NCBI GenBank assembly: GCA_017650925.1
Contig: JAGCDY010000085.1
Coordinates: forward strand, 174-64,173
Reading direction: 5' to 3'
Source: a bacterium
GTDB taxonomy: Bacteria > Auribacterota > UBA3054
Length of the DNA stretch: 64,000 nucleotides
Translations under genes and position numbers: made by a program
Notes under the pieces: model-generated
Told to the model about the DNA's origin: nothing
The model's input: the letters and a program-made list of their open reading frames with translations, nothing else
Databases searched by the model: none
Shown: positions 12,140 through 15,441 of the stretch, one piece after another
How the letters are laid out: every line of letters starts with the position of its first letter
Position numbering within the stretch: the stretch's first letter is position 1

Positions 12140-12535
12140 ATGGCTCTTTCCGCAATTGCCGCTTACAATGGAGACCTTAAGTGCACCGCCACCTTGGCCG
12201 GCGCCCAGACTTCCATTGAGACTGACGCCAAGGGAACTCCCGGCGTCTTCTCTCCGACAGACGTGCTCTCCGCCGCCCTGGCGACCTGCACGGCCAGCAT
12301 GATCGGCTTCGTGGCCGCCCAGCAGAATATCGACATGACCGGCCTTTCGGTGGAAGTAGGGAAGGAGATGCAGCAGTCTCCGGCCTCTGTTAAAACTTTC
12401 AAGGTGAAAGTTGTTTTCCCCAAAGTCGCTCTGGAAGATTCCATGAAGAAAAGGCTGGAAGGCGCGGCCAAGGCCTGCCCGGTCAAGAACAGCCTTAATC
12501 CGTCCATTGAAATAGTGACCGAGTTTGTCTACTAA
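12140..12535 (+). CDS. OsmC/Ohr-family (peroxiredoxin-like) protein
   Basis: 131 aa with the typical OsmC layout: ..FSPTDVLSAALATCTASMIG.. and ..AAKACPVKNSL... The two conserved Cys are in the expected contexts. RBS gagga lies upstream. Confidence 0.8.
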   Translation: MALSAIAAYNGDLKCTATLAGAQTSIETDAKGTPGVFSPTDVLSAALATCTASMIGFVAAQQNIDMTGLSVEVGKEMQQSPASVKTFKVKVVFPKVALEDSMKKRLEGAAKACPVKNSLNPSIEIVTEFVY

Positions 12536-13970
12536 ATTTTCAGATCGGCTTCAAGTGCTGCGCCCGCTTTCCGCGGGCGCGGCGCTCTTTTTCCTCGTCC
12601 TGATTCAGCTTATATTCAGGCTGCAGTTCGGACCGGGCGGAGTTCTTGCCGAGGCGGACTCCGCGAAGTTCGTGCGCGTCGCGCTGGAGGGCGGGTGTCC
12701 GCACACCCCGCTCTTTCCTCTGTACACGCTGTTGCTGCGCTTTTTTACGCATTTCAAATTCATTGACGAACCGGGGGCGAATCTCTCCCTGCTTTCCGCC
12801 ATCCTTGTCTCTCTTGGCTGCGTTTTCCTCTGGGACGCGCTGAGCCGCCGCTTCAAGGATAGGTTCTTCACTTTCTTCGCGGTCTTGGCGATGAGCTTTC
12901 TGCCTTTTATCGTCACGGCAGCGACTGAAGTGACGCCTGTTTCCTTGTCGTTTTGCCTTTTCTTTTTCGCCTACGCCGTCTTTGTCAACGAGTCGGTCCC
13001 GCTTTATTTGAAATTTATTCCCTGCGGCCTTTTGGCTTTTCACGATCCTTTGGCGCTCTGGTTCTTCGCACTGCTTTTTCCCTTCGCCGCTCTTTACTTT
13101 TTCAGGGTGGGGAAATGCAAAGACTTTTTTGCTGGAACGGCTTTGGGGATCGCTTGCGGTCTTCTTCCGTATCTTTACGCCGTCGCTTCCTTCCAGAGAG
13201 GGGAGAGCTGCGAATATCTGAGAAGGGAGGACTTTTGGAAAAGCCTTTTCTGCGCCGTGCTGAACGGGCAGTTCTGGAGCAATTATTTCGTAATGCCTCC
13301 TTCTTCATGGCCCATGAGGCTCGCGGATCTTGGCCGGTCGTTCCTTGCTTCGGCTGCGCTCCCGCTGTTTGCCGCGCCCATTCTTCTTTTGGGCCTTTTC
13401 CTAAGAAAGACGGAGAGATTTTTGAGCTTTGAACTCGCGACGTTTTTCGCCGCCCTTTTGGCTGCCTTGCTTTTCATCATTCCCTGCTACGTCTTCTATC
13501 CCTTGCAGTGGTTCTGGCTCCTTGAGGCCTATCTGGCGATTTTTTTGGCCTGCTCTTTTCTTTACATATGCCGCTCGGAAGCGATGCGCCCGGTGCTTTG
13601 CCCGCTCCTCTTTTTAGGCGTCCTTGTTTTGTTTGCGCACAGTTTCAAAAAGGCTCCTGAAAGGAGAAACTCTTTCGAGGCCGCGAAGCTTGCCCAGGCC
13701 TTCGGAGCGCTCACACATGGGAGTGTGCTGGTGACCGGGGACGTTTACACCGACGGGGAGTATTACCGTTATCATCTCGCCGCGCACCCGAAACTCGTTG
13801 CCAAAAACGTCGCGGTCATGGATGAAGTTGTCACTGGCAAAAGAAACTTTTTCATTTCGCCGGTCGTGAAAGGTTACCTCGAAGAGCAGGGCGTGCCTTT
13901 CCATCTTGTCAGCGACGTCGACGGCCTGGCCGTTTACGAACTGGGGGAGAAAACGGACGGTGAAGAGTAA
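12525..13970 (+). CDS. Polytopic membrane protein, DUF2723/TMEM260-like GT-C-fold glycosyltransferase (putative protein O-mannosyltransferase-like)
   Basis: More than 10 predicted TM helices followed by a soluble tail of about 100 aa. The N-terminal signature EADSAKFVRVALEGGCPHTPLFPLYTLL resembles the DUF2723 motif (acidic loop ... HPPGYPLY, recalled from memory). The ORF-track start is a TTG overlapping osmC, so the true start is uncertain. Confidence 0.5.
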   Translation: MSTKFSDRLQVLRPLSAGAALFFLVLIQLIFRLQFGPGGVLAEADSAKFVRVALEGGCPHTPLFPLYTLLLRFFTHFKFIDEPGANLSLLSAILVSLGCVFLWDALSRRFKDRFFTFFAVLAMSFLPFIVTAATEVTPVSLSFCLFFFAYAVFVNESVPLYLKFIPCGLLAFHDPLALWFFALLFPFAALYFFRVGKCKDFFAGTALGIACGLLPYLYAVASFQRGESCEYLRREDFWKSLFCAVLNGQFWSNYFVMPPSSWPMRLADLGRSFLASAALPLFAAPILLLGLFLRKTERFLSFELATFFAALLAALLFIIPCYVFYPLQWFWLLEAYLAIFLACSFLYICRSEAMRPVLCPLLFLGVLVLFAHSFKKAPERRNSFEAAKLAQAFGALTHGSVLVTGDVYTDGEYYRYHLAAHPKLVAKNVAVMDEVVTGKRNFFISPVVKGYLEEQGVPFHLVSDVDGLAVYELGEKTDGEE

Positions 13971-15441
13971 GCGCTGGCTTTTTGATCTTATTCTGCTTTT
14001 GCTCCTCGCCGTCGCGGCTTACGTTTCCTCTTTCAAAGGGACTTGGCAGTTCGACGATTTCAGATGCATCGTCGATAACGAAGCTTTGAGAAGCGGGTCG
14101 CTTCTGAACCTCTGGCGCTTTTCCCCCGGGCGCTTCCTGGCTTTCCTTACCTTCTGGCTGAACTACCGCTTCTGCGCGCTCGACATTTTCTGGTATCACC
14201 TTGTCAATCTCTTCATCCATATCCTGAACGGCTTTCTTTTCTACTGGTTTCTTCTGCTTTTGCAGGGAGCTTACGGAAATAATGAGGAGAAGCGTTTCCC
14301 GGCCTTCATGTGCGCCGCGCTCTTTCTAGTCCATCCCGTGCAGACGCAGGCGGTGACTTACATTGTCCAGCGGTTGGAACTGCTGTGCTTCACTTTCATG
14401 ATCGCGCACCTGATCTTCCTTCTGCTGGCTCTTAGAAACAAGCTCTTCTTTATCCCGGCGGTCCTGGTCCTCATAGCCGGCCTCTTCTGCAAGGAGAATA
14501 TGGCGGTGGCTCCGCTTATCGCGCTTTTAGGATTCTTCGTTTTCGCGTCAGCCGACCTGAAGCCTTTCCTCGCCAAATACAAAAAGTATCTTATTTTAGC
14601 GGCGGCCGCCTTCGTCGTCCTAAGCCTTCTCGTTCTGCGTTTCGCGGGAGTGTGGAAGGGGACTAGCTTCGACTTTTCACCGTTAAGCAGGCTTTACGCC
14701 GATACGCCCGATATCTTCTCTTATTTCGCCACGCAGTTCAAAGTCTGGGCCGTCTACCTTAGACTGTGCTTCTGGCCCTTCGGGCTGAGGCTGGAGTACG
14801 ACGTGCCTCTGGAAGGCTTCGCCTCGCCCTGGGTGATCTTGGCGATAGTGTTCTGGCTGGCGTTGGCGGTCTTTGCCTGGATCAACCGGAAAAGATGGCC
14901 GTACCTCGCCTTCGGGCTGGGCTTTTTCGCGCTTTCATTGGCGCCGGCGGCCACGCTCATTCCCAACGGGCTTTACGAACACCGCCTTTACTGCGCGCTG
15001 CCGGGGATATTGATCGCCGTCGTTTTCACGCTCTTTCCGAAAAAGAATCTTTACAACGCGGTCTTTCTGATCGTTGTCATTCTGCTCTTCGTTTTCTTAT
15101 CGTTCAGGCGCAATTTCTATTGGAGCGACGCGGAGCTGATCTGGCGGGACAATCTTCAATATTCGCCCGAAAACTTCAGAGTGAACGCTAATGTCGGCCA
15201 GGCGCTTATGGGAAAAGAGCGCTACCTTGAGGCTCTGCCGTATCTGAAAAAAGCCATCGAACTGCGCCCCCAGACCGTCGAGGCCCATTACAACCTGGCC
15301 TGCTGTCTGGCCGGGATGGGGGACCTCAAAGGCGCCAGGGAAGAACTTTTGGCCGCCAAAAAGCTGAAGAGCAAACTTCCCGAAGTGAAACGTCTCGTCG
15401 ACGAGGCTCTGAAAGAAATAGATCAGGCCTTGGGCGAATAG
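13906..15441 (+). CDS. TMTC-like membrane protein (GT-C fold, DUF1736-like block, C-terminal TPR repeats)
   Basis: Acidic loop after TM1 (WQFDDFRCIVDNEAL), then HLVNLFIHILNGFLFY and GLFCKENMAVAPL. The C-terminal TPRs read NANVGQALMGKERYLEALPYLKKAIELRPQTVEAHYNLACCL. 13906 is a TTG. An in-frame GTG at 13960, preceded by gggggaga, is a plausible real start and overlaps the upstream stop. Confidence 0.65.
   Translation: MSATSTAWPFTNWGRKRTVKSKRWLFDLILLLLLAVAAYVSSFKGTWQFDDFRCIVDNEALRSGSLLNLWRFSPGRFLAFLTFWLNYRFCALDIFWYHLVNLFIHILNGFLFYWFLLLLQGAYGNNEEKRFPAFMCAALFLVHPVQTQAVTYIVQRLELLCFTFMIAHLIFLLLALRNKLFFIPAVLVLIAGLFCKENMAVAPLIALLGFFVFASADLKPFLAKYKKYLILAAAAFVVLSLLVLRFAGVWKGTSFDFSPLSRLYADTPDIFSYFATQFKVWAVYLRLCFWPFGLRLEYDVPLEGFASPWVILAIVFWLALAVFAWINRKRWPYLAFGLGFFALSLAPAATLIPNGLYEHRLYCALPGILIAVVFTLFPKKNLYNAVFLIVVILLFVFLSFRRNFYWSDAELIWRDNLQYSPENFRVNANVGQALMGKERYLEALPYLKKAIELRPQTVEAHYNLACCLAGMGDLKGAREELLAAKKLKSKLPEVKRLVDEALKEIDQALGE

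Follow-up and report, generated by a model that had tools for sequence, protein, structure and literature searches.

The P1-P2 locus

The bacterial contig JAGCDY010000085.1 (assembly GCA_017650925.1), from the lineage UBA3054, encodes two adjacent polytopic membrane proteins, here called P1 and P2, which resemble two different families of animal protein O-mannosyltransferases. UBA3054, which is uncultured, belongs to the phylum Auribacterota (PMC12057145). The analysis covered 64,000 nucleotides (nt) of the contig (positions 174 to 64,173; "the window"), to which all coordinates refer unless another locus is named. P1 and P2 follow the genes of two giant secreted proteins, giant2 and giant3, in the order:

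1655-6292, plus strand: giant2, a 1545-amino-acid (aa) secreted protein of metzincin type, with PKD and other beta-sandwich domains and a PEP-CTERM tail
6293-7453, plus strand: alpha/beta hydrolase (hormone-sensitive-lipase-like), between the giants; Pfam Abhydrolase_3, E 3.6e-24
7471-12123, plus strand: giant3, a 1550-aa secreted PEP-CTERM protein of metzincin type, directly 5' of osmC-P1-P2
12140-12535, plus strand: OsmC-family protein without signal peptide; Pfam OsmC, E 9e-17
12525-13970, plus strand: P1, a predicted short TMEM260/DUF2723-like GT-C glycosyltransferase of 481 aa, with a membrane core and a small C-terminal alpha/beta domain
13960-15441, plus strand: P2, a protein of 493 aa with a TMTC-like polytopic membrane domain and three C-terminal tetratricopeptide repeats (TPRs)

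The open reading frames (ORFs), coordinates, overlaps and motifs reported in the initial annotation of this DNA, and the position of the two genes after giant3 and osmC, were all present as described. A 16-nt gap separates giant3 from osmC, and osmC/P1 and P1/P2 overlap by 11 nt each, the P1 ORF starting with TTG 11 nt before the osmC stop. The longest P2 ORF (13906-15441, plus strand) has 511 aa; the true start is most likely the GTG at 13960, giving a protein of 493 aa and the 11-nt overlap with the P1 stop, since GGGGAG lies upstream of it, the P2 homologs in related contigs are called as genes of 493-497 aa, and an AlphaFold2 (AF2) model predicts disorder for the long ORF's residues 1-18. 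P2 closes the plus-strand block, because a convergent minus-strand gene for a GT4 glycosyltransferase ends at 15423. The P1 sequence carries ...EADSAKF...GGCPHTPLFPLYTLL, and that of P2 carries WQFDDF, HLVNLFIHILNG, FCKENMAVAPL and the C-terminal TPRs. Both are real genes under purifying selection, as many homologs of each and low ratios of nonsynonymous to synonymous divergence (dN/dS) attest: across seven related loci the ratio was 0.16-0.32 for P1 and 0.08-0.19 for P2.

P1, a short relative of TMEM260

A word-indexed homolog search with P1 returned 20 relatives, all metagenomic proteins without names, which form the alignment A1; a broadened alignment of the family is called A4. Searched against the sequences of the PDB, the A1 profile matched a single structure, human TMEM260 (9rql_A, E 2e-5), over P1 residues 18-418 and TMEM260 chain residues 29-454. 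Judged by this alignment, P1 is homologous to TMEM260 across the whole GT-C core and into the Rossmann-like domain, and its initial classification as DUF2723/TMEM260-like holds, although P1's own Pfam score is below threshold. The AF2 model of P1 (predicted local distance difference test, pLDDT, 79; predicted template modelling score, pTM, 0.84) consists of a polytopic helical core followed by an alpha/beta domain of ~100 residues at the C-terminus. Foldseek returned eight matches at E<=1e-3, all of them GT-C enzymes (PglB, ALG12, ArnT, ALG9, Pmt4), with TM-scores normalised to the query of 0.44-0.58; AftB and Pmt1/2 were also among the structural matches. P1 is thus predicted to adopt the GT-C fold that the initial annotation had expected of it. 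The Pfam scan of P1 found no TPR, and the NCBIfam scan gave no match at all.

An exhaustive search of 1.84 billion representative proteins with the P1 profile yielded 680 relatives at E<=1e-3. About 12 of these are full-length matches of like size (~440-495 aa), the others being longer proteins of DUF2723 type. All of the 10 P1 homologs tested against the threshold of the Pfam TMEM260-like family passed it (26-91 bits), and precomputed matches place the P1-like genes of three loci outside the host clade (L018, L019 and L032) above it as well.

Cryo-electron microscopy of TMEM260 identified D52, H67, R264, Y267, R355 and D441 as functionally important (10.64898/2026.03.17.711096). D52 and H67 lie in the region of the first luminal loop and D441 in the Rossmann-like domain; mutation of any one of these three abolishes activity, and D441 is the proposed general base that activates the threonine hydroxyl. 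R264, Y267 and R355 contact the phosphate and the mannose of the donor, acceptor binding requires the TPR domain, which also suffices for it, and the enzyme has 11 helices (10.64898/2026.03.17.711096). The counterparts of D52, H67 and D441 in P1 are D45, H60 and D406. All three are invariant in A1 and also in A4, whose members include some that are only ~25% identical (for D45, 21-24%), as is a loop motif of the P1 family, Q249-F250-W251-x-N253-x-F255. As far as sequence comparison can tell, P1 is a divergent and shortened member of the TMEM260-like superfamily in which the acid/base positions are kept and the donor contacts are altered.

P2, a TMTC-like protein

Pfam and NCBIfam recognise in P2 only TPRs (residues 425-497). 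Its family comprises 496 matches at E<=1e-3 among the candidates scored, mostly proteins of 550-880 aa with more TPRs, several of which carry the JGI name "protein O-mannosyl-transferase". These numbers, and the 680 relatives of the P1 profile, make the label "eukaryote-like" that the two proteins had been given misleading, both families being widespread in bacteria. Full-length TMTC homologs, with transferase and TPR parts, have been reported from poorly characterised prokaryotes (PMC7801869).

The invariant residues of the P2 family in its membrane domain are D50, D51, R76, H98, N101, H105, P144, R156, K196, E358, H359, R360 and Y362; E197 is conserved in >=90% of members, within a family consensus TKExxxTLP. 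The motifs described for TMTCs include M1 (DD), M2 (SHKSYRP), M4 (KE[T/Q]xxT), M5 (DW) and M7 (ERxxY) (PMC7801869), and P2 was compared with these published motifs by eye and not by alignment to TMTC sequences. In this comparison D50-D51 in the first loop correspond to M1 and K196-E197 in the third loop to M4. Of M2, only the extended region has a likeness in the family, in R76 and the LTFxLN after it; an invariant Arg corresponds to the Arg of M3, and E358/R360/Y362 (EHRLY vs ERxxY) match M7 approximately, the Arg being shifted by one position.

The AF2 model of P2 (pLDDT 89, pTM 0.90) has a helical membrane domain (residues 23-405) and six TPR helices (409-510). Against PDB sequences, single-sequence and profile searches with the membrane domain found no matches, and the profile of full-length P2 was swamped by TPR proteins. 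A full-length homolog of P2, P0133 (E 1e-42 to P2), passes the Pfam PMT_2 threshold (36 vs 26.1 bits); DUF1736 and PMT_2 had no match in 14 truncated members of the family at E<=1. The assignment of P2 as TMTC-like is thus supported by architecture and motifs and not by a family model or fold comparison: of what had been proposed, the layout, the DD, KE and E-R-Y motifs and the TPRs stand, and a DUF1736 or PMT_2 match in P2 itself does not.

Within 20 kb the genome encodes a minimum of two TMTC-like proteins. The second lies at

32502-34313, minus strand: P2-family paralog of 603 aa with membrane domain and TPRs; blastp to P2 28% over 453 residues, E 7e-33

and adjoins neither giants nor a P1-like gene. 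It has its own DD (YHLDDF), KET (FCKETIV) and EHRMY motifs and C-terminal TPRs.

The pair recurs in distant lineages

The closest P2 relatives outside the host clade, P0034, P0035 and P0057, are 32-37% identical to P2, and directly 5' of each lies a gene of ~482-494 aa with a Pfam TMEM260_N match. These 5' genes are full-length homologs of P1 including its C-terminal domain (blastp E 1e-31 and 4e-12; A1 scores 184 and 102 bits). A metagenome scan with the broadened alignment turned up another six P1-like genes, more distant ones, and a P2-like gene follows every one of them. The distant P1-like genes were thus recognised beside P2 homologs or by the metagenome pattern scan; a word-indexed search with the broadened P1 alignment recovered the close clade again and one weak match only.

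In all nine out-of-clade loci (L018, L019 and L026-L032) a P1-like gene is thus followed by a P2-like gene on the same strand. The two overlap by 1-4 nt in six loci and are 5 nt apart in two; in the truncated L028, ~100 nt separate the aligned ends. That a GT-C family and an unrelated, putative GT-C family are strictly adjacent in lineages so far apart is the strongest of the new findings, and it speaks for joint action of P1 and P2. The examined flanks of the nine loci contained no detectable homolog of osmC or the giants, and outside the clade the pair is not consistently located beside glycan genes. A UvrD helicase gene lies 3' of the pair in three loci (L029-L031). P2-family genes without a P1-like partner also exist, for example in L020 and as the window paralog described above.

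In five loci the gene 3' of the pair encodes a protein of ~555-590 aa, conserved and apparently cytoplasmic, with the precomputed label HTH_GRAD (PF27167): L018 3266-4921, L019 7010-8686, L026 6930-8597, L027 11177-12844 and L032 9818-11587.

The giants and the host clade

Both giants have a signal-like N-terminus and a metzincin motif HExxHxxGxxH at residue 329 (HEDGHTMGGRH in giant2, HEDGHNMGGQH in giant3). Pfam finds PKD/PKD_4 and, more weakly, Y_Y_Y and CarboxypepD_reg in giant2, and PKD_4/PKD with a weak Reprolysin match in giant3; both match the NCBIfam model Mep72 (E 2.2e-10 for giant3). The tail of giant3, LTPEPASLSLIILALLAFVRRNR, passes the PEP-CTERM model TIGR02595 (19.7 vs 16 bits), as does that of giant2 (16.5 vs 16 bits). 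Their description as strings of PKD/Ig-like domains needs correction: each has only 1-2 Pfam PKD matches beside further beta-sandwich matches, and the metzincin motif in addition. The giants are probably cell-surface-anchored metalloproteases and not merely adhesin-like repeat proteins. With their TIGR02595 tails and adjoining glycan-biosynthesis genes they resemble known PEP-CTERM/exosortase systems with exopolysaccharide (EPS) loci; unlike in those systems, no exosortase was found in the Pfam scan of ~35 window ORFs, from which some smaller ORFs were left out.

Ser/Thr-rich linkers as glycosylation sites in the giants were considered and rejected, Ser plus Thr amounting to ~15% with no rich stretch. 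A further ORF of 533 aa (57-1658, plus strand) shows homology (33-36% identity) to the giants over their C-terminal third and lacks a signal peptide; its PEP-like tail (LTPEP...KLHHKDRS) has no match to TIGR02595. It may be a truncated or decaying paralog, or its true start may lie beyond the window.

In a scan of one genome per GTDB species, relatives of P1 were found in eight metagenome-assembled genomes, one of them UBP3_UBA3054 and the rest from the digestive tracts of yak, buffalo, goat and sheep. In this host clade (UBA3054, Auribacterota, ruminant gut) every sufficiently long locus retains the order giant3-osmC-P1-P2, the P1-P2 pair is present in all loci, and osmC precedes P1 wherever the sequence reaches 5' of P1. 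The usual downstream cluster, GT4/OmpA/DedA/GT4/Wzy-like/flippase, is replaced in L004 and L005 by a lactamase_B gene and an ABC2/Wzt (Wzt_C) glycan exporter; in L014 and L016 the usual downstream genes were not detected and the giant-osmC-P1-P2 block is still kept. The pair therefore adjoins different glycan-export systems in different genomes. In the most divergent clade locus, L006 (OsmC 52% and P2 53% identical), a giant-family C-terminal module precedes osmC. Downstream of P2, L004 (11605-14808 and 17617-20043) and L014 (19038-21410) hold lactamase_B-fold and glycan-exporter genes and then another gene of the giant family, a distant one (26-27% identity).

In every clade comparison it is P1 that diverges most within the block, at 46-81% identity where its neighbours are at 80-99%. 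Three loci compare with the window as follows:

L004: giant3 86%, osmC 95%, P1 46%, P2 83%
L024: giant3 96%, osmC 71%, P1 48%, P2 65%
L010: giant3 97%, osmC 99%, P1 79%, P2 92%

Against the window, the P1 alleles of L001-L017 and L021-L025 fall into classes of ~72-81%, ~46-48% and 40% identity. Synonymous divergence (dS) from L024 is 0.25 for giant3 and 1.0-1.6 for osmC, P1, P2 and the adjoining GT4 gene (GT4a, 15423-16499), which thus diverges jointly with osmC-P1-P2; it is ~0.5 for hyp221 and OmpA and ~1.0-1.3 for DedA and the second GT4 gene (GT4b). Against L021 and L010, giant3 and osmC have a dS of 0.18-0.22, P1 of 0.56-0.60 and P2 of 0.39-0.46. The P1 alleles and this dS pattern resemble those of serotype-like glycan loci. 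The block boundary between giant3 and P1-P2 indicates that P1-P2 were inherited with the flanking glycosyltransferase genes and not with giant3. On this sequence evidence the giants and P1/P2 do not look like a co-evolving enzyme-substrate pair; the giants may still be substrates.

These results bear directly on the proposal of the initial annotation, that P1 and P2 are dedicated to the giants and O-glycosylate their PKD/Ig-like beta-sandwiches in the periplasm before exosortase processing. The operon-like arrangement (11-nt overlaps at two junctions after a gap of 16 nt), the retention of giant3-osmC-P1-P2 in all long-enough clade loci, including L004, L005, L014, L016 and L006, and the nature of the giants, which are exported proteins (signal peptide, PEP-CTERM) with PKD and other beta-sandwich domains of the kind on which TMEM260 and the TMTCs act, all speak for such a dedication. 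The predicted genomic association is real within the clade and breaks down outside it, where the pair occurs in nine of nine loci without detectable giants or osmC and is followed instead by the HTH_GRAD protein or the UvrD helicase. Within the clade, the dS boundary (giant3 0.18-0.25, the osmC-P1-P2-GT4a block up to 1.0-1.6) separates the supposed enzymes from their supposed substrate, and near-identical giant3 alleles (96-97%) stand beside P1 alleles that are 47% or ~80% identical to the window's. The block also includes a gene for an OsmC of cytoplasmic type and is therefore not functionally uniform, the giants have no Ser/Thr-rich regions, and no exosortase appeared among the scanned ORFs. 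A role dedicated to the giants is accordingly not established and is weakened by the wider distribution of the pair; we consider it unlikely.

The adjacent surface-glycan cluster

Convergent with P2 lies a cluster of genes for surface-glycan synthesis, which includes:

15423-16499, minus strand: GT4 glycosyltransferase (GT4a), first gene of the cluster; Pfam Glycos_transf_1, E 3.6e-42
18248-18901, minus strand: DedA/VTT-domain membrane protein; Pfam VTT_dom, E 9e-11
19692-20813, minus strand: second GT4 glycosyltransferase; Pfam Glycos_transf_1, E 4e-31
20815-23379, minus strand: Wzy_C/O-antigen-ligase-like membrane protein of 854 aa; Pfam Wzy_C, E 9e-7, under the family cut-off
23443-25014, minus strand: Wzx/MurJ-type polysaccharide flippase; Pfam Polysacc_synt_3, MatE, MurJ

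This neighbourhood raises the possibility that P1 and P2 act on a non-protein acceptor, adding side-branch sugars to the surface polysaccharide or glycolipid of the cluster in the manner of ArnT, GtrC and YfhO, and that their linkage to the giants is incidental. GtrC- and YfhO-type GT-C enzymes act on glycans. The position of P2, convergent with two GT4 genes and genes for a Wzy_C-like protein, a Wzx/MurJ-like flippase and DedA, is consistent with such a role, as are the ABC2/Wzt glycan exporter downstream in L004 and L005 and the divergence of osmC-P1-P2-GT4a as a single block in L024. The structural matches of P1 include ArnT and AftB, and in the alignment P1 lacks the Arg and Tyr residues with which TMEM260 binds mannose and phosphate. 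Three observations argue otherwise: TPRs recognise polypeptides in TMEM260 (shown experimentally) and in the TMTCs (as proposed), P1 retains the Asp aligned with the TMEM260 base that activates a threonine hydroxyl, and the out-of-clade pair is not consistently beside glycan genes. A glycan- or lipid-directed function for the pair strikes us as improbable on balance.

The 854-aa protein has a long soluble C-terminal extension with an acidic tail and is 85-88% identical in related loci. Its sequence would fit a polymerase, a ligase or a protein O-oligosaccharyltransferase of PglL type, and in the last case the protein could be an alternative glycosylator of the giants.

A proposed cooperating pair of periplasmic glycosyltransferases

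The reading that we favour, with moderate confidence, is that P1 and P2 are two different GT-C-type membrane glycosyltransferases that form a translationally coupled, autonomous module and probably cooperate, with the giants as plausible clients. Autonomy is suggested by the occurrence of the pair without giants in nine of nine out-of-clade loci and by the recombination blocks that split giant3 from osmC-P1-P2. P1 would be a "mini-TMEM260", a GT-C core with a small periplasmic alpha/beta domain that holds the base-aligned Asp and without TPR "fingers", and P2 a short, TMTC-like enzyme that brings its own DD motif and carries three TPRs in the periplasm. Both would be inner-membrane proteins whose acidic first loops and C-terminal domains face the periplasm, an orientation suggested by their positively charged N-termini and by the homology to 11-helix TMEM260. 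The enzymes would take a sugar from a polyprenyl-phosphate carrier and pass it to Ser/Thr of exported, still-extended polypeptides.

Cooperation is inferred from the strict pairing, the absence of TPRs from P1 and the dependence of TMEM260 on its TPR domain. By analogy, P1 and P2 probably form a complex in which the P2 TPRs would help to present substrates, the models being TMEM260, with its TPR "fingers" and Rossmann-like "palm", and the dimeric PMTs. PMT/POMT enzymes are obligate dimers (PMC12705809). In the UBA3054 lineage of Auribacterota the giants are the most plausible clients, because the module shares an operon with these PEP-CTERM metzincin giants and adjoins the surface-glycan cluster.

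Several points weigh against this reading. A glycan or lipid, and not a protein, could be the acceptor, and none of the window ORFs scanned was identified as a lipid-phosphate-sugar synthase. For P1, the score against the Pfam TMEM260-like family (PF11028) is 20.3 bits, below the cut-off of 24.2 (E 5e-4, residues 45-104), and the alignment places N247, F250 and W329 at the positions of TMEM260 R264, Y267 and R355, so that neither Arg nor the Tyr is kept; without these donor-binding residues the donor may differ or activity be altered. For P2, the invariant DW (M5) was not seen in the 248-299 loop, DUF1736 (PF08409) and PMT_2 had no match in the membrane domain at E<=10, and the best 50 Foldseek matches of the full model were all TPR proteins and do not assess the membrane fold. 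An hhalign comparison of the P1 family with the P2 family gave no signal.

Less probable still than a dedicated or a glycan-directed role, and in our view quite remote, is that only one of the two is a catalyst, P1 being a fast-evolving, weakened scaffold or specificity partner of P2 or the reverse: the divergence of P1, a P1 dN/dS ~2x that of P2 in four of seven comparisons and the replaced counterparts of R264, Y267 and R355 would fit, but D45, H60, D406 and the Q249-F250-W251-x-N253-x-F255 motif are invariant down to ~22% identity, which argues for a maintained active site, and a P1 dN/dS of ~0.2 denotes clear purifying selection.

The cooperating-pair reading can be carried further, tentatively and with considerable doubt. 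The pair might be a heteromeric periplasmic protein O-glycosyltransferase in several lineages, in which the P2 TPRs serve P1 in trans, a relative and possible forerunner of the two domain-specific O-mannosylation pathways of metazoans that in the rumen Auribacterota decorates the giants.

Relation to known systems

P1 shares with human TMEM260 (GT117; PDB 9rql) the GT-C fold, is homologous to it through the GT-C core as far as the beginning of the luminal Rossmann-like domain, keeps the D52, H67 and D441 counterparts, and has a soluble domain that is predicted to be non-cytoplasmic. It differs in length (481 vs 707-729 aa), in its much smaller alpha/beta domain, in the absence of TPRs, in having N, F and W at R264, Y267 and R355, and in that its gene is paired with that of a second, putative GT-C enzyme. 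P2 shares with the metazoan TMTC1-4 (GT105; DUF1736 plus TPRs) a polytopic N-terminal domain, C-terminal TPRs and the DD, K-E and E-x-R-x-Y motifs; unlike them it has no DUF1736 match, no invariant DW and only ~3 TPRs, where TMTCs have roughly 8-10. The Pmt1-Pmt2 structure (GT39, PDB 6p25), a solved complex of GT-C protein O-mannosyltransferases, offers a model for the putative P1-P2 complex, with the difference that the PMT partners are paralogs of one family with MIR domains, whereas P1 and P2 belong to two families, the second a putative GT-C family, without detectable mutual similarity.

Bacterial TMTC homologs (PMC7801869) and distant TMEM260 homologs (PMC10214176) have been noted before, and glycosylation of PEP-CTERM proteins is an old general conjecture (PMC12188702, PMC9850573). 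Full-text literature searches found no functional work on bacterial DUF2723 or TMTC proteins and no GT-C pair tied to PEP-CTERM. Three things appear to be new: a TPR-less TMEM260-like gene and a TMTC-like gene form a conserved pair, the short bacterial form keeps the base equivalent to D441, and in rumen Auribacterota the pair lies within an operon of PEP-CTERM metzincin genes.

It is only within the last decade that TMEM260 and the TMTCs have come to be known as protein O-mannosyltransferases, and their bacterial homologs are uncharacterised. The conserved pair provides a concrete, testable model of a two-subunit periplasmic glycosyltransferase, and the small size of P1 and P2 (481 and 493 aa) makes them possible tractable models for the disease-linked human enzymes. 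If the giants are clients, the pair would be the first specific enzyme candidate for the conjectured glycosylation of PEP-CTERM proteins.

Other genes of the block

The OsmC-family protein (12140-12535) has two conserved Cys residues; its gene adjoins the pair throughout the host clade and was not detected beside it in the nine out-of-clade loci. The alpha/beta hydrolase encoded between the giants (6293-7453) is 84-92% identical across related loci.

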